DNA of 62,313 nt, the filler included, from Sphacelaria rigidula (Eukaryota): the NCBI GenBank assembly GCA_964200075.2. It is 7 parts of 7 records of this genome, joined end to end, with 100 filler letters (N's around TTAATTAATTAA, not from the genome) between each part and the next. Parts side by side here need not be neighbours in the genome. Positions count along the whole stretch, not along the records: positions 26,754 to 35,569 come from CAXNAA020010031.1; 6 more parts are not named here. One strand, written 5' to 3'. A program made the position numbers and the translations under genes. This document shows, in pieces, positions 1,476-31,190 of this stretch. Position 1 is the stretch's first letter, and each line of letters opens with the position of its first letter. The notes under the pieces are model-generated. The model did not search any database and was not told where the DNA came from. It was given only the letters and a program-made list of their open reading frames with translations.

Positions 1476-4048
1476 GGGATCGCAGCCGGGTCGTTGGATG
1501 GTGCCGGTGCACTTCTTGTGGGGGGGCTATCTTTGGCATTAGTCTTGTCACTTTCGTCCTCCATGTCACCAACGCAGCGAAGCCTTGGGTGTATAGACAT
1601 TATGTCGTTACTTCAGCTGCGATACCCCGAAGCGCAGGTCCCAACAAGCAGTAAGAAAAACTTCTCATTCTCGATGGTAGCAAGCAGCTAATGCATACTG
1701 TATACAGTCCGTGTTCAGGTTTCGAAAAGTTCTAAAAACACTGTAGGACTCATGTGTTGTCTTCATTGTAATACTCTGTACTGCTGTATATATACACATA
1801 TATACATACTGTAGGATTCGCGTATTTCAACAGGAGGGATCCAAGTATCTGGAAGGGGTCACGTTTTGGGCAGGTTCTTGGAAAGTTCTGATTGGTTCTA
1901 AAAATACATTCTGAAAAAACGAAACACTTTTCTGTCACAGAAATCCGATGCTGAATTTGAAATGGCCCGAGACAACAGCCAATTGGAAAATTGGAAAAGT
2001 ACGCCAGGATTATTAGTTCAATGTGCAAGGGGTATCTCGAATGAATCTGCGAACGGGGATGCCCTGACCCATTTTCCTGTGCATCTGGAATCCTCAGGGG
2101 CCCTTGAACCAGACAAGATTAATATTTTGTGCAAAAGGTGCACCCCTACCTTGGCATTCGCAAAAATATTGTTTCATGGCTTCAGAGGTGAAACAGTTTC
2201 TTACGCGACAAGCACATCGACTACCACATACCCAATGAGAAGAAAAAAAGGAGTAAATATATTGCAACTCGGCTATTTGAACACACCACTTGTACTGGGT
2301 AAAAACTCTCACCCTCGAACCGCACGGAAAGCGAGGCACCAAACCGCGACTTGCTCCCAACAGGAATAAAGGAGCATATTGGGAGAGAGACCCTGTGACC
2401 ACAATTTCCCGTGCCTATTTACTCATGAAGGATGATATCTCGACGTTCACATCCTGGGAAATATATATTTTTTCTTCATCTTTCGCCCAAATGCGCCCAG
2501 CGGGGCTGATATCTCCCGCTTTTTCTAGCGGATGAGAGGCAATCCAGACATACATACAGGCATCGAAAATGCCCACCCTCACGATGACCTTGTACCAAAG
2601 AAAGCGTGATCAATGCGCGGGGCAAATTTACACAAGTCGCTATTCCCTGAACTACACTACAGCATACCCTATTCCAAAGGATCACATCGTCTCATGCGTT
2701 ACAGCGCAGCCTCCAAGATACGAAGCTTTCGAGTGCCGGCACTACTACAGAAGGTACACGTTCTATTAAATAGTTGCCGATTAATTTCTACCCAATCCTT
2801 GAAAAAGCGGTTTTGTCAAGCTCGACAAAGCAGGGTGGCTCAAGTTACACAGAAGGTCTGCATTTAAGTTGCCTCAAACATCTCCATGAAGATGCCATAG
2901 TTCGAACAACCAAGTAGTTCGGCTCGATACATCCCCACTTGCCATCATTTAGAGACAGTACATCTTTTATACTCTTTGAAGGAGGAAACCTCACCCCATT
3001 TCAATTCACGGTGTGTCGGGTCCTTTTTGCCTCTGCTTCGTTTCCGACACGCTTATTTGACTTTCTTGCTTTTTAGTCATCAACGGAAATATCAGCCAGG
3101 CGCCCCCCCCAGGTAAAAATCACAACCATAACCACAGCTACTGCTGAACGCTTCTCGCGATAACAGAGAGTTTCGGAAAACACTCATTTGTCATTTCAGA
3201 GTGCAAATATCGCAGGATCAGAGTGCAGAGTGAAGAAAAAACTCATCGAAACAAAGGTGAGGGGGTATGACATTCGAAGGAGAGAGGAACAACTTTTCTT
3301 TACACTCTGATCCTGAGATTCTTACACTTTAAAATGATGAAAAATCGTGTTCCGAAACTCTCCAACAAGTAAGGCGAGCATGGTAGAAGGAAGGTGGAGT
3401 ACTAAGAGCAAATAAACATACGCCAGTGTGGACCTTCCTCCTGTGTGACCCCGGCGGATGCACCCACATGTACCGAAAGATGTATATTGGCGTCCAGAAT
3501 AAACGGGATGGCAAACACAACACACAGCTTACACACTGCTACCGACTACTGTCATTCCGAGCACCGGCCGCCAGCCCCGCCCAATAGCTGTCGATAGCCT
3601 CCCTCATCAAGTGTGCGGTAAAACACGCCTGCTGGAAGTAAACTTTCCCATCTTCCGGTGACACCATGACTGCAGGCCGTGCCCCCAAGGCGTAGGAACA
3701 CCAAACCGGCTGTATCAAGTCGCTGTATGGATTTCCTGGGAGATAGTCCGGTAAAATCACCTGCTTGGGTTCGTCAGACGAGGGTGATACTTGTGGTGAG
3801 CGTACGACATTCTTATTTCCTTCTTTACATCCTCGAGTCAACGGTGTGTTGGGTAGGGTGAATACCCGGGTATTACTTACTCTCCCGAATTTCGTGTCCA
3901 CCGTGGTCCGATCTTCAAACTAGAGCTACCCAAATATTGGGTGAAGGTAGGTACGATTTTACTACTTTACTCAATTTCTAGATTGTGTTCGAATTCGATT
4001 TTCATGTCATCTATCCAAATTTTGGGCGCTCGGGCTACTCCTCATGTC

Positions 4049-4490
4049 AACACAGCATCTTACCAATTGGGGATGGGTCTTTCGTTGGGGATGAGAACCC
4101 GGAGGATTAAAATCTTTGTATCCACATCAAATCTTCGGAATATGGTTCCATTCCTTCACCTACTGATAGCTAGTGACAACTGCTACACGCCATAGAAATT
4201 TGGATTCCACTCACCGAAGTGCTGGGGTCTTAGATGAAAAACCAATTTCGGAACCATTTTAGCGTCCGTTCGGACACCCGGAACTCACCAAAATTGGTTT
4301 TTCCCCGAGGACCACAACACTTCGATGATCGAAATCCAAATTTCTACGGCATGTAGCAGTTGCCAATAGCTATCAGTAGGTCAAGAAATGGAATCATATT
4401 TTGAAGACTTGGTGTGGACACGAAGATTTTAATCCTCCGGGTTCTCATCCCCAGTAAAAGATCCATCCCCAATTTGTAAGATCCCGTGTT
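4049..4490. mobile_element. Fold-back MITE-like element, almost entirely an imperfect inverted repeat
   Basis: aacacagcatcttaccaattggggatgg...ggggatgagaacccggaggattaaaatct pairs with agattttaatcctccgggttctcatcccc...ccatccccaatttgtaagatcccgtgtt; arms about 200 bp. Confidence 0.8.
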
Positions 4491-8818: not shown

Positions 8819-8918
8819 NNNNNNNNNNNNNNNNNNNNNNNNNNNNNNNNNNNNNNNNNNNNTTAATTAATTAANNNNNNNNNNNNNNNNNNNNNNNNNN
8901 NNNNNNNNNNNNNNNNNN
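8819..8918. other. Artificial contig spacer (44N + TTAATTAATTAA + 44N); identical spacers at 17737-17836, 26654-26753, 35570-35669, 44485-44584, 53400-53499
   Basis: Six identical 100-nt spacers with an all-frame stop linker; the pieces between them are 8818, 8818, 8817, 8816, 8815, 8815 and 8814 bp. Confidence 0.98.
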
Positions 8919-25862: not shown

Positions 25863-26026
25863 ATGGCTCAACGATCTATAAGTAAGCCTGTGTCAGCGTG
25901 GGTGCAAGTCGCGGTCTGCACCAGCGGATTCTTCCTAGGATCACTTTTTCATCAAGTCGAGGGTCACGCCTTCATGATGGCCCCTGTCAGCCGCACCTTC
26001 TACTACACCCCGGTCTTTCAGCAGGC
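25863..26026 (+). CDS. Candidate first exon of a secreted LPMO-like (His-brace) protein
   Basis: MAQRSISKPVSAWVQVAVCTSGFFLGSLFHQVEG-HAFMMAPVSRTFYYTPVFQQ then |gtgagt; hydrophobic stretch, V-E-G cleavage-like site and H-x-x-M-x-x-P-x-S-R as in AA10/AA15-type N-termini; next exon not confidently identified. Confidence 0.55.
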
Positions 26027-26916
26027 GTGAGTATTTCACGAAGTTGTTTCAGTACAGACGGGCCGATCCGTCGATACGTGCCTGTCATGATCTTATCCGG
26101 TTGCGGTGTGTGTTCACGGTCTCTTCGCCAGTCTGCATTATCTCAACATTGACTATATATGTTGTCGCTTGATAACAGGTGACGGATTCGCGTGGTACGG
26201 CACACCAGAGGGCCAACGATGTTGATCAAATGTACCTCGGCAAGAGCACCGTGACTAGATAATAATGGCCCTCAGTTGCAAAGAATACGGCGAACGACCT
26301 CTTCGATTCAATAATACGAGCATTATTGCATGGTAAACATAAGAGATCGGGGACCGCGAAATATATGCGGTAACTTGTCGTTGAGGGGGGTGCGTGTAAA
26401 CAGAGAGAGAGAGGAGATGACTGCTCAGCTGCACCGTTGATGATAATTGCGTTGTTGGTTGGTCGGCGATACTTTCCCAAAAGCCGACCTCGCTCCTCAA
26501 GAGTGTCAAGATTATTACAACGTATCGATTGTCTGGTTGTATGTGTAATGCGTGGAGGACCGCGTGCTTAGAGGACCGCATCGGAATTCGAACATCCCTA
26601 TGGTTAGGGTTAGGGTTAGGGTTAGTAGTCGAGTTATGGTCAGAGGCGTGGTANNNNNNNNNNNNNNNNNNNNNNNNNNNNNNNNNNNNNNNNNNNNTTA
26701 ATTAATTAANNNNNNNNNNNNNNNNNNNNNNNNNNNNNNNNNNNNNNNNNNNNTGCGTGGTCAATGGTCAAACGAGTAAGGCAAGCAACAAATGAGTACG
26801 CCCCCCCCCCCAGTTGGTACAAACCAAACCTTCAACTTGTGAAGGCTCTGCCGTCTTGTCACCAGTGTGCACCAATCTTGATCGAATGTATTTGCTCCAC
26901 TGCCCTCAACAAACAG

Positions 26917-27060
26917 GCATGCAACAGCTACTGCGCGGGAATGCAGGCCGCATACATGGGGCTGCAGTACGGAAACGAATGCTGGTGCAGCATGGACGCA
27001 GCAAAGGACTTCGAGCGCCACGGCGTTGGTCTCTGCGACGAGCCTTGCGGTGGCGATTCG
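26917..27060 (+). CDS. WSC-expansin-like gene, exon a (second half of a WSC domain); 5' part of the gene is off-contig
   Basis: aaacag| ACNSYCAGMQAAYMGLQYGNECWCS...CDEPCGGDS |gtgagg; WSC Cys pattern and QYG.ECWC motif. Confidence 0.92.
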
Positions 27061-27904
27061 GTGAGGATCTTGCCTCAGAAATATGGAAGCGGCGTCCTTT
27101 GGTTGAAATAGGATAGCACATACTCCGGAGTACATGAATGTACATTGCTCAAATCAAGCCGTGGGCTAACACGTGCATCGATTTAGTTGCCGTTCGAATG
27201 GTACAATACTTTGCGAACTACATTTTCTACACGTTTCCCGGAAAACTGCAGCTAACTACTGTTATCGTATCGCCTTTTAGACTATGGTTTGAGGTGGTTT
27301 GAGGTGTAGTGCGTGGTCTGTGTTCGTCTTGACAACGGTATTTCGTGGTATGCACTCCCGAATGAAGTGCCGATGAGAGTCCAACCCCTTGACCGCCTTT
27401 CACACGGTGGGTAATCCTCTGGATAGACATCAATTTCACTGAGCACAAACCATATTACCAGCCACCCAAGAGTCGAAGATTTCGTGTTGTTCACGTAGCC
27501 ATTCTACTCGTACCTTCATCTCGCGTACTCTGACGTAACGGGAGTATCACAAGAAAGCAAGTACTCCCGCGCTACCCCCTCGCCCCCCTCCTTCTCGCCC
27601 CGCACCCCACGCCTCCTCCCGACTTTGTAGGGATGCGAGGTCAATGGCCTTATGACTATGACACGCATGATCTTAAGTACACCCACGCTCGTCCCCGCCC
27701 TCAACATTTTTCTTCCAACAGCGGTCAATCAACTACAAAACGGAGGACATTCCAAACTTGACTCTGCTTTGACGCGCATCGCCGTGGGCGAAACGAGCCG
27801 CACGTGGCAACCGCAGGTGCATGATTAGATGCATGGTACAGATCGCCCCTGTGTGAAGATGCGCCTCCTTCCCCTCGAACCCTCGCTCGGTGCCGTACAT
27901 GCAG

Positions 27905-28099
27905 ATGACGACGTGCGGCGGGGACTACGCTTTCGAATTGTACGCACTTGAGTGTATCGAGGAGACGCACTCTGAATACGTAGGCTGCTATCGCGACATG
28001 AAGAGCATGAGGCTGCTGAGCAACATGGTGGGGGATGAGGAGATGACGACGTCTATGTGCCGTACGCACTGCGACGGCTATAACGTCTACGCAACCCAG
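27905..28099 (+). CDS. WSC-expansin-like gene, exon b (end of one WSC domain, start of the next)
   Basis: tgcag| MTTCGGDYAFELY...YVGCYRDMKSMRLL...MTTSMCRTHCDGYNVYATQ |gtactt. Confidence 0.92.
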
Positions 28100-28809
28100 G
28101 TACTTCACTTATTAGAGTGCCGAGCAATCCCTCGCCGAGGGAAGTTGTTGAGTCCGTCCAATCAGCATCACGGTTGGTTGAATACACGATTACGTTGTGT
28201 GTTTTTTGCGGTAACCATGATGGTGGTCGAGCTAGATCTCTCTTGTGCGGGGTGGAAGTACCTCAATCCCGCGCGAAGGAGATGATTACTACGTAGTGTT
28301 TCAATGATGAGACACCAATGCGGCAGTGTTGGACGCGCGTGTCTGTCTCTGGAAGTGGTGACATCAAAAAATAAAGCAACTCTTTTGAGGCTGTCATCCG
28401 AATGCAAGATGATCAATACGCTTCGGGCCGAACAATCTTAGCAAGGTCCAGCTCACCCTTCATGCGGCTGGCCTAACACATCGCGGCGCTTCACGCTTGG
28501 TGATCGATTGCGAGCCTGGTCCGGCGAAAACCCGGCGTGCTCCGTCCCGGCTTCGTAGGGATGGGAGGTCAATGGTATTTCCGACCACGACCTGCGAGAC
28601 CATGAGTACACCCCCCCCCCCCTCCCCCCCACCCAGCGCGGGGCGGCTCTACGCCGCGATTTTTGTTGTACGGACAAAAGTGAATAATCGTGATCGTCGT
28701 ACGGTACACGTTAGTTCTCGTTTCTCGAACATGGTGTTCCATGATCCCTCATTGCGAAAAGTATTCCTCGTCTGCTCCTGCCGTCCGATACGCCGCCTCG
28801 TGTGTGCAG

Positions 28810-28912
28810 TACGGTAACGAGTGCTGGTGCGGCAATTCAGATCCGTCCGCCTACGAGGAAACCCTCGGAGTGTGTCACATGCAGTGCGCCGGTGATTCGA
28901 CCAGTCCCTGCG
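28810..28912 (+). CDS. WSC-expansin-like gene, exon c (WSC)
   Basis: tgcag| YGNECWCGNSDP...CHMQCAGDSTSPC-G |gtgagt, phase 1. Confidence 0.92.
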
Positions 28913-29195
28913 GTGAGTGTCTAGATGATTTGCCCGTCGAGCGCAGTGTTTTCGTTGCGTTTCCGTCGCGAGCGTCGCAGTTGTTGCAGTTGTCGCATAC
29001 TCCCTGCTCTTCGAAACTCCGTTGTCGCCTCGATCCACTCGAGGGTGGCGTGGGTGAGCCAACAAGTTTCTCCGTGGTTCCGGTTTCCACAGCCAAAGTA
29101 ACCGAAGTATCGAGATATTTTATGCACTACTTTCGATATTTCCTCCTCTCCTCGGTCCTCCTCCCACTGTCCGCCACACCTGGTACCTTATGCAG

Positions 29196-29494
29196 GTGGA
29201 TACCTGGCATTTAGTCTTTACGAGTACAGCGACGGAGTGACAGCCGAGCCGACCGACACGCCTGTCGCCCAGCCAACTCCCGAGCCGGCCTCCGCGTCAA
29301 GTGGGGGATCCACCACTGGAGCAGAGGCACTGTCCGATGACGACGATGACGCAACTCCCCTTCCTGCTCCTTACGATGGTGCAAGAACGGGAGACGGAAC
29401 CTACTACGGTACAACGTCTGGCGGCAACTGCGGGTTCAAGGGCGACTACCCTGTCAAGACTGATGGATATATACCCATGGCGTATAGCTACGGT
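29196..29494 (+). CDS. WSC-expansin-like gene, exon d (WSC end, P/T/S/D-rich linker, start of the DPBB domain)
   Basis: tgcag| GYLAFSLYEY...TAEPTDTPVAQPTPEP...DDDDD...RTGDGTYYGTTSGGNCGF...AYSYG |gtaagt. Confidence 0.88.
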
Positions 29495-29929
29495 GTAAGT
29501 GATTATTATGTGCTGAGATATGGCAGTAGTCCTACCTTTCATCGTAGTCATTCTGCCAGTATCGCCATTTTTTTTCTCCTGTTCATTTCTTCTGTGGGTT
29601 GCTGCACCTGTAGAAAAGGGTATTTCTCTTGCTCAATGTGCCTATGGGCATATCATGAGTAGATCTCGTTCCGGCATTCGTGCATGTGGTGTCTGCCGCG
29701 ATTTGCATTGTTTGCTCCCTATTGGAAGCGTACGCATCGAAAATTGGGTGCGCGGAATCGAACACCATCGGTGTTCAACCCAACATGCAGAAGGAGGGCT
29801 GCAGCCGACACATGCCCGGGAGAGAGAGAGGTGGCCTGCAGTGTTGGGCTGATCCCATCAGTCAGCTCACCTCGTACTAGTTCCGTTCAACATCCTCTTG
29901 TACCCTCCCTCCCTTTCCTCCCATACTAG

Positions 29930-30355
29930 GGAAACTCCGAGATATGCGGAGCGTGCGTGCAAGGCTCCGGCTCGGGAAGTGGAGCCGGTGCAGACCCGAT
30001 AACGGGCGATTTCAAAGGGTTCATCATGGACAAGTGCTCAGAGTGCGCTACAAGTGACCTCGACTTCTCGAAATCTGGTGACGGCCGTTGGGACATTGAA
30101 TGGGAATTCGTCGAGTGCCCCTATGAAGAAGAACCCTATTTCGTGTTTGAGGGTAGCAACAACTTTTACTGGAAGATCAGCCCTCGCGCTTTTCTGGTCC
30201 CCGTCACGAACTTGTACGTGAACGGTGTAGAGTTCGAACGCACTGACGACAACTATTTCGAGGGAGAGTTCGATTCTGAGACGACGGGCAGTCAAGTCGT
30301 GAAGTGTGATCTGCTGGTCGGAAATTCTCAAGAATATGACGTTTCTCGAACTTGA
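29930..30355 (+). CDS. WSC-expansin-like gene, last exon (DPBB remainder plus CBM63-like domain)
   Basis: Polypyrimidine tract and ctag| GNSEICGACV...MDKCSECATSDLDFSKSGDGRWDIEWEFVECP...EGSNNFYWKI...RTDDNYF...*. Confidence 0.9.
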   Translation, partial: GNSEICGACVQGSGSGSGAGADPITGDFKGFIMDKCSECATSDLDFSKSGDGRWDIEWEFVECPYEEEPYFVFEGSNNFYWKISPRAFLVPVTNLYVNGVEFERTDDNYFEGEFDSETTGSQVVKCDLLVGNSQEYDVSRT

Positions 30356-31112
30356 GACGAAGGGCGTGGTGCGGAGCTATGCTGACGAGGGTGATACGGA
30401 TGGGATGACAAGTGTTTCCGTGTTCTCCCACTCCCCAGATGGTTGGAGGGCCAGCACATTAGCTTCCCCCCCCTCCTCTTGGCGTTTCCTTTTTTTTGCT
30501 AAAACTGTAGTTTCGTTTCCTCGTTTTGTTTGTCAGCGCCGCAGAAACAGATCATCGTAATACACGTCTCCCGCTGTCAATTTTCAAAATGTCCCAGAAG
30601 CAACTCTATCTTGCTGCTGTTATTGCACCACAGTAGTCACACACAAATGCCTGTGATCGACAGACCGGTGGGATGATGGATTCGGATCATTGTTGCGGTT
30701 GCGGTCACACCACGCGACCCGCACATATGAATGCCTCGCGCGGCTGTAGGGTCGTGCAGTGAGATGAATCCGCTTTGAGGCCGGGGTGAAGCTCGCTGCA
30801 CCCCGGGCCTCAGCCTCGATGGCGTGTATTTTGTTGCTCGTATGGTTTCGTGGCTGAGGGGTTGGGGTGGGAAGGTGACACATGGCCTTGTTGCAGGGAC
30901 TTCCGTCGCCCTGTTGTAGCTGCATTGTTCATCTTGGCGTAACGATTTTGTCTTTCCTGTCTTTTGTGCTGACTTTTCTTTGCTTCGGGGTCCAAGAGAA
31001 CGAGCGGGTGGTGTGTGAGTGTATTGATGACGCTGTGACGGTATACATCAGACCTTGATGACCCTCCGAGCGGCGGATCACGTTGACTAATGAAGTGCTC
31101 TAGCACGTTTAC

Positions 31113-31190
31113 GCTAGTGTGACCCGATGGAATATACAGCTAGTGTGACCCGATGGAATATACAGCTAGTGTGACCCGATGGAATATACA
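31113..31190. repeat. Perfect 26-bp tandem repeat x3
   Basis: gctagtgtgacccgatggaatataca three times. Confidence 0.97.

Follow-up and report, generated by a model that had tools for sequence, protein, structure and literature searches.

Do brown algae possess expansins of their own, and could such proteins loosen the algal wall? The question is raised by a gene on the plus strand of a 62,313-nucleotide window (the whole stretch of DNA analysed here) from Sphacelaria rigidula (assembly GCA_964200075.2). The window consists of seven separate contigs of about 8.8 kb each, joined by identical 100-base N-linkers, and the five exons of the gene that it holds lie between positions 26917 and 30355. 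They encode a WSC domain whose N-terminal third is missing, a second WSC domain, an acidic linker and a two-domain expansin of the EXLX type, in this order. We report that these parts belong to a single spliced host gene and that the architecture recurs in other brown algae. We propose that the protein is secreted, is tethered to glucan and loosens the wall of the alga itself without hydrolysis, a predicted activity that in our judgement could equally well hold or fail.

The first-pass annotation of this DNA had described five clean exons, and all five were recovered; joined, they read through 388 codons in a single frame, free of internal stops, to a final TGA. Exon A (26917-27060) carries profile positions 29-76 of WSC domain 1 (Pfam WSC, E 5.1e-8). 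Exon B (27905-28099) holds the end of this domain (to ~27949) and the first half of WSC domain 2 (from 27977; E 1.8e-5), the second half of which is encoded by exon C (28810-28912; E 1.9e-6). Exon D (29196-29494) comprises the end of WSC domain 2 (to ~29227), the linker (~29228-29368) and the start of expansin domain 1 (29369 on). Exon E provides the remainder of domain 1, a double-psi beta-barrel (DPBB; 29930-30118), and then domain 2, a CBM63-like beta-sandwich, plus the TGA (30119-30355). The four introns (844, 710, 283 and 435 bases) are all of the GT-AG type and end in pyrimidine tracts.

Eight sequencing runs are listed, four of which were examined (X1, X2, X5 and X8). None is recorded as RNA, and the RNA nature of the transcript contigs is deduced from their skipped introns, which mark them as processed transcripts. 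The five exons are consecutive, without any other letter between them, in X1 record 1 (2,028 nt, study P1) and in X8 record 19 (2,298 nt, study P2), and three junction-bounded pieces are present in X2 record 5. Run X5, of the DNA type, runs colinear with the genomic sequence (over 28602-31142, for instance), and the depth of the DNA-type run on the gene's contig is even at ~70, repeats aside. The WSC and expansin exons are thus one spliced host gene. Indeed, a split of the WSC and DPBB exons into two transcripts, which would have undone the first reading, is contradicted by single contigs spanning both in two studies, and the argument from introns against bacterial contamination is upheld by their splicing. 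The 3′ untranslated region covers at least 30356-31142 on the plus strand, X8 record 19 spanning 29930-31142 and X1 record 1 reaching 30896; this is a lower bound, since the contigs of the DNA-type run also break at 31142. Contig depth over 30079-30428 is 41-61 in X2 and X8, against ~8 elsewhere on the transcript, and this feature is absent in X1.

The 5′ end of the gene lies elsewhere. The last exon maps to contig G000:C10031 of the assembly (244 Mb, 27,214 contigs), which begins 163 bases ahead of exon A (26754-26916, plus strand, an interspersed repeat followed by the end of an intron). What lies outside this contig, and outside the window, is therefore the start codon, the first ~28 residues of WSC domain 1 and the signal peptide, if there is one. 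From the transcript contigs, the 5′ exon or exons on another contig amount to at least 320-344 nt of mRNA: 320 bases precede exon A in X1, 344 in X8 and, by arithmetic, 328 in X2. About 85 of these bases are required for the start of WSC domain 1. Unless the contigs are cut at their 5′ end, such a short upstream sequence favours exactly two WSC domains, the remaining bases leaving space for a 5′ untranslated region and a signal peptide and hardly for a third WSC domain. Across the genome, 62 sites fit a degenerate pattern for a first-half WSC exon; among the 20 examined none was assignable to this gene, and roughly half lacked a second-half WSC exon on the retrieved stretch.

The first reading claimed at least two WSC domains, and two are matched by Pfam across exons A-C. 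Exons A and C individually exceed the 27.8-bit cut-off of the WSC family (PF01822), and exon B scores 25.3 bits. WSC domain 2 is complete with its eight cysteines, while seven are found in the portion of WSC domain 1 that is present, from profile position 29; Pfam match and eight-cysteine pattern together assign these domains to the family. The linker of ~45 residues is acidic and rich in Pro, Thr, Ser and Asp, as had been read, and the motifs quoted at the time are present in the sequence. No CBM1 was found by the Pfam scan of the five exons, that is, downstream of the missing 5′ part, so that the N-terminal CBM1 of swollenins is not seen here.

How firmly can the C-terminal module be called an expansin? 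No Pfam family matches the last exon, and among 87 relatives one reaches the cut-off of DPBB_1 and none that of Expansin_C or EXPB1_D1. This is a limit of sensitivity and not an absence of the fold. Searched against PDB sequences, the last exon has only three matches, all to EXLX proteins (E 0.17-0.44), and a profile of 83 relatives recovers six EXLX structures (E 9e-30 to 3e-17). When the AlphaFold model of the last exon, which has a pLDDT of 93.6, is compared by Foldseek, expansins fill the first 12 rows. In VIA the same model aligns over its residues 1-141 with an expansin at Z 12.6 (rmsd 2.9 over 131 residues), the best row from outside the expansin family reaching Z 6.6, and its residues 66-141 match the group-2 allergen Phl p 2 (Z 7.8). 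Because the last exon contains ~60% of domain 1, the first 42 residues of which sit in exon D and were compared by sequence only, the Ascophyllum homologue P0163 was used to model the whole module. In that model, residues 212-393 match expansins at up to Z 19.6 (rmsd 2.2 over 170 residues), with expansins at Z 15-20, GH45 chains at 8.3 or less and MltA at 7.5. The WSC part of the P0163 model is of low confidence (pLDDT below 50 over residues 29-91 and 129-174), and the ESM Atlas matches (0.92 or lower) are taken as leads only.

The module of 183 residues ends at the stop codon and is strongly acidic (pI about 4.05). Its domain 1 is modelled as a GH45-related double-psi beta-barrel, directly followed by a domain 2 with the CBM63 or group-2-allergen beta-sandwich. 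Domain 2 is present and folded in the model, which separates the module from loosenins, in which this domain is lacking. By its predicted domain structure the module belongs to the expansin superfamily, class EXLX, and the complete expansin-like module initially proposed (DPBB plus CBM63-like) is borne out by structure prediction, Foldseek, VIA and family profile. It is not of the BsEXLX1-type subfamily: it stays under the score cut-off of NCBIfam NF041144, and the aromatic triad of domain 2 is incomplete. The last exon, taken alone and not as part of the whole module, scores 32.7 bits on NF041144 (E 4e-8), below the curated cut-off of 100 bits, and five relatives with one whole module also stay below it at 58-77 bits.

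The alignment with Bacillus subtilis EXLX1 (YoaJ; PDB 2bh0 and 3d30) allows functional positions to be compared. The equivalents of Thr12 (within GDGTYYG, exon D), Asp71 (30029-30031), Glu75 and Asp82 (30062-30064) are all kept, as are the six cysteines of the module. Asp82 is needed for creep in BsEXLX1, according to PMC5072189; the first reading had claimed this Asp, and its equivalent is indeed there, an acidic residue that together with Thr12 and Asp71 characterizes EXLX proteins and that 123 of 125 family rows retain. The position of Tyr73 holds Cys, as in the Clavibacter expansin. The loop after the Asp82 motif has four residues in 150 of the 156 readable sequences (187 examined), in sets assembled by similarity to the query, towards which they are biased. 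In domain 2, the described cellulose-binding set consists of Trp125, Trp126, Tyr157 and Lys119 (PMC11040781). Here the first two positions are occupied by Phe and Tyr (30164-30169) and that of Tyr157 by Asp (30248-30250), while Lys119 is not kept and aligns with Glu or Phe, depending on the alignment. The motifs EGSNNFYW and RTDDNYF pointed out initially are present, but it is the second Asp of RTDDNYF, and not its Tyr, that aligns with Tyr157; RTDDNYF is accordingly no conserved aromatic motif, and two-thirds of the triad are kept. Asp at this position is a family trait (116 of 125 rows, plus both bacterial outgroup rows), and the overlap of Tyr157 with the glucan is described as inexact in PMC5072189.

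Altogether, compared with microbial EXLX proteins (BsEXLX1, Clavibacter 4jcw, Streptomyces 9ms5 and Talaromyces 7wvr), the module shares the order of a DPBB domain 1 and a beta-sandwich domain 2, the four polar positions above and two aromatics at the Trp125/Trp126 positions. It differs from them by an identity of 19-25%, by ~8 residues missing past the Asp82 equivalent, by its Asp at Tyr157 and loss of Lys119, by its position under the NF041144 cut-off, and by the N-terminal WSC pair and the introns of its gene.

Is this architecture peculiar to S. rigidula? The last exon matches 397 cluster representatives with E-values of 0.001 or lower, the best 150 of which were considered. In at least nine of the proteins retrieved, a WSC domain is combined with this expansin; they represent four named genera (orders Fucales and Ectocarpales) and, besides these, a protein designated P0018. 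Ascophyllum nodosum has three such proteins with two WSC stretches each, and two partial Ascophyllum models start at the same point within WSC domain 1 as exon A. Scytosiphon promiscuus also has the fusion, Hapterophycus canaliculatus has two such proteins (one under the Pfam WSC cut-off) and Nemacystus decipiens two, each with two CBM1 and one of them with four expansin repeats. The WSC-expansin architecture is therefore not unique to this genome and is conserved over at least two brown-algal orders. The clade of the present copy includes Ectocarpus CBN77792.1, Ascophyllum CAN0347440.1, Scytosiphon CAM9495915.1 and Nemacystus g12092 and g12093. While Ascophyllum shares the whole WSC-WSC-linker-expansin layout, several other brown-algal relatives have one WSC domain, and the Ectocarpus protein has none and carries a different Cys-rich N-terminal module; its UniRef entry, D8LRN1, bears the automatic name 'Expansin-like EG45 domain-containing protein'. 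The brown-algal database records are unstudied and automatic, most of them entered as 'unnamed protein product'. The Nemacystus models g12093 (P0001) and g12092 (P0161) are adjacent and combine WSC, two CBM1 and one to four expansin modules in a swollenin-like design.

Among 87 representatives scanned, a WSC domain is found only in P0018, the others carrying CBM1, CBM2, CBM14, GH8, GH9 or CAP. P0018 itself, which may be algal or viral, has a signal-like leader and combines one WSC domain with an expansin that falls within the brown-algal clade, and the longest contig carrying it measures 40,157 bases. A search for a viral source of it gave no relative in IMG/VR and, from JGI metagenomes, two matches confined to WSC; nothing in the viral fold library matched with an E-value of 0.001 or lower.

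The S. rigidula genome contains six domain-2 exons on six contigs. Four of the paralogues (G000:C1699, C6298, C5119 and C15254) are stand-alone expansins in which, by eye, a hydrophobic signal-like leader directly precedes domain 1. No WSC was matched by tblastn near the paralogues, in nine stretches of the six contigs that cover C1699 from its fifth kilobase on. With so many stand-alone members, the WSC fusion is not required. The intron positions of these four paralogues differ from those of the WSC-expansin gene.

Fusions of an accessory carbohydrate module, on a linker, before an expansin are known from fungal swollenins (CBM1) and from bacterial CBM2-, CBM32- and GH5-expansins; these are the only ones listed in section 8 of Chase et al. 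(2019; bioRxiv 10.1101/637728), and WSC is not among them. The words 'WSC' and 'Ectocarpus' are absent from the main text of that paper (10.1101/637728), apart from its supplementary tables. The first-pass annotation had stated that early brown-algal analyses reported no canonical expansins. Such an older statement does exist, a 2016 paper noting that expansins had not been reported for any brown-algal genome and that these walls must be disrupted by novel mechanisms (PMC5100021), but Chase et al. (2019) already count Phaeophytes among the lineages with expansin genes. 'Expansin' does not occur in the main text, supplements aside, of the paper on 60 brown-algal genomes (10.1101/2024.02.19.579948), nor in the main texts of PMC8307928, 10.1101/307165, PMC11333212 and 10.1101/2021.08.21.457218, and the accessible portions of PMC12223506, 10.1101/135806 and PMC5294986 hold nothing on brown-algal expansins. 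No published WSC-expansin fusion or study of a brown-algal expansin was found in a search that left most subscription journals and bioRxiv supplements aside, and the fungal literature pairing WSC domain and expansin-like terms was not checked for such a fusion. Within this literature we found no description of the architecture that would forestall the present one. Brown-algal expansin genes thus seem to be known at survey level and, apparently, unstudied; what appears to be new here is the WSC-expansin architecture, expansin genes in Phaeophytes having been noted before (Chase et al. 2019; UniRef D8LRN1).

Where does the module come from? In a FastTree of 128 rows, the brown-algal rows, P0018 and P0009 form one clade (support 100) within a clade of 54 rows (95). 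In a quick IQ-TREE of 54 rows selected from these 128, the brown-algal clade (99 SH-aLRT) lies inside a clade of 40 rows (99) that holds OSX68463.1 of Porphyra umbilicalis. This red-algal protein is the nearest relative of named source outside the brown algae; 25 of these 40 rows are non-brown, and one of them carries an organism name. The Porphyra protein shares the short loop and the Asp at Tyr157 and is devoid of WSC, and the fused modules vary within its 40-row clade. On these trees the brown-algal copies are nested among eukaryote-type relatives including Porphyra, and a red-algal link, of unspecified direction, is plausible; Chase et al. (2019) recovered a red-algal expansin within Stramenopiles (bioRxiv 10.1101/637728). 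A pattern scan of 185,579 prokaryotic genomes gave 146 matches with two relatives at 24-26% identity, and a single plasmid match has 29%. No close prokaryotic relative thus emerged from this pattern-limited scan, which is not proof of absence, and a direct bacterial donor is left unsupported. The idea of a recruited microbial-type expansin has no support as far as a direct bacterial transfer is meant, the nearest named outsider being Porphyra.

Seven relatives were found in IMG/VR, six with domain 1 only and one with two domains, and none of the six scanned has a WSC domain. The domain-1-only proteins are small, secreted and loosenin-like, carry the GDGRW motif of the clade and lie near 3950-4450 on six contigs (L050-L055), five of them named as giant-virus metagenome-assembled genomes. 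The two-domain expansin (L056:3872-5287, a contig of 548 kb with 23% GC) has a Thr/Pro stalk and a Cys-rich C-terminal module that resembles the N-terminal module of the Ectocarpus protein (P0162; 42% over 64 residues, pairwise E 2e-9) and has no Pfam match.

What could such a protein do? By analogy with the four paralogues that carry a signal-like leader, it would be secreted, its two WSC domains sitting on a flexible acidic stalk that carries the EXLX-type expansin. Known ligands of WSC domains in fungi are xylan, chitin/beta-1,3-glucan and long beta-1,3-glucan (as cited in PMC9224591), and WSC proteins occur in brown-algal walls together with beta-1,3- and mixed-linkage glucans (PMC8307928). 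The WSC pair could thus tether the protein to beta-1,3- or mixed-linkage glucan and, in doing so, may compensate for a domain 2 with two of the three platform aromatics. That a module reduced in aromatics has repeatedly acquired WSC and CBM1 fits a transfer of binding to accessory domains. The strongly acidic surface would, again by analogy, direct the protein to neutral glucans and away from alginate and sulfated fucans. Domain 1 would grip a glucan chain through its Asp82 equivalent, and non-covalent glucan-cellulose contacts would be broken without hydrolysis, so that the alga's own wall could slip locally in growth or remodelling.

Several points weigh against this wall-loosening proposal. 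The signal peptide is not visible for this gene, its 5′ end being off the contig. Wall loosening, glucan binding and action during growth are predictions, and the ligand data on WSC domains come solely from fungi. Cellulose is a minor component of brown-algal walls. With Tyr157 replaced by Asp and Lys119 lost, the binding of cellulose by domain 2 may be weak. WSC domains are also so common in brown algae, with 444 and 320 WSC proteins in two Ectocarpus genomes (10.1101/307165), that their fusion to an expansin argues little for specific targeting. Finally, at seven positions that 70% or more of the family rows conserve, this copy has changed, among them Pro to Ser, Gln to Ser and the loss of Asn/Gln in the loop before CGAC, a shortening that the transcript junction confirms, and no end branch of the brown clade in the IQ-TREE is longer than its own, which measures 1.28 where the median of the tree is 0.48. 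As judged from its sequence, it is a fast-evolving copy and the most divergent of the brown-algal members.

It is on this divergence that the most serious alternative is founded. The expansin module might no longer loosen and would mainly bridge glucans, making the protein a lectin-like binder or cross-linker of the wall; the long branch, the seven departures and the incomplete domain-2 triad would all fit, and several paralogues could provide the ancestral activity. However, Thr12, Asp71, Asp82 and the six module cysteines are retained, the gene is intact and transcribed, and P0152, which is 65% identical, shares the Gln-to-Ser change and a Gly-to-Ser change, which indicates a conserved sub-lineage rather than decay. 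We regard this possibility as rather unlikely, while keeping it seriously in view.

A role in defence or interaction is also conceivable, the protein acting on the beta-1,3-glucan and cellulose of foreign walls (oomycete or fungal parasites, epiphytes) or on callose-like infection papillae. In fungi, WSC lectins that bind beta-1,3-glucan have a part in confrontation (PMC9224591), beta-1,3-glucan papillae are induced in kelp by oomycete infection (PMC8307928), and the family shows tandem duplication and fast evolution. On the other hand, transcripts are present in runs of two studies, the conditions of which are not on record, and the family is conserved across orders with relatives in a red alga, so that we hold this role to be distinctly unlikely.

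That the protein is truly enzymatic, cutting or transferring glucan chains as GH45 enzymes or lytic transglycosylases do, appears highly improbable. Domain 1 does share its double-psi barrel with GH45 and MltA, but in the homologue model expansins score far higher than either, and domain 2 is present. At the position which we take to be that of GH45 Asp10, presumably the second catalytic residue, this gene has Thr instead of Asp; three of the four stand-alone paralogues have Asp at what we assume to be the same position. Moreover, expansins are reported as non-hydrolytic (PMC5072189). An artefact made of two neighbouring genes, contamination or a pseudogene, to which the fragmented assembly and the missing 5′ end might lend colour, can be set aside as barely credible, the two-gene and contamination readings being rejected by single spliced contigs that join WSC and expansin exons in two studies, and the even DNA-type depth, the same architecture in Ascophyllum and the place inside the brown-algal clade (99 SH-aLRT) speaking against the whole.

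The wall-loosening proposal can be widened, more doubtfully, to the lineage as a whole. It is possible, although we would not expect it, that an overlooked expansin subfamily extends through the brown algae, mostly escaping the Pfam cut-offs and either held in common with red algae or derived from them, in which the domain-2 platform was partly lost and targeting passed to WSC or CBM1; its members would loosen the tethers that beta-1,3- or mixed-linkage glucans form on cellulose, and would be the wall-loosening agents that brown algae are said to lack. In any case, a transcribed, multi-copy expansin family that crosses orders and recurrently bears WSC fusions provides named candidates for the question of how brown-algal walls are loosened. 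If the proposal is true, expansin-type slippage growth would occur in a third independently multicellular lineage, and the fusion would also offer a handle on the ligands of brown-algal WSC domains. If the module is inactive, the protein would be one among hundreds of brown-algal WSC fusions.

Other features of the window are minor. Its N-linkers start at 8819, 17737, 26654, 35570, 44485 and 53400, and the contigs that they join are unrelated, so that neighbourhood across a linker has no meaning. An exon at 25863-26027 (plus strand) on the preceding contig was considered as the 5′ end of the gene and rejected, as it lies on a different contig, beyond an N-linker. Taken alone, it has no Pfam and no PDB match. 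It has an ATG, a signal-peptide-like stretch of 34 residues, then a His and a PxSR-type motif, an N-terminus that we take to resemble the His-brace start of AA10/AA15 lytic polysaccharide monooxygenases. Finally, a short high-copy interspersed repeat occurs in the introns of the gene and at the contig start (26754-26811, ~27620-27700 and ~28500-28630) and also near ~8920, and it shows a very high depth in all four runs examined.

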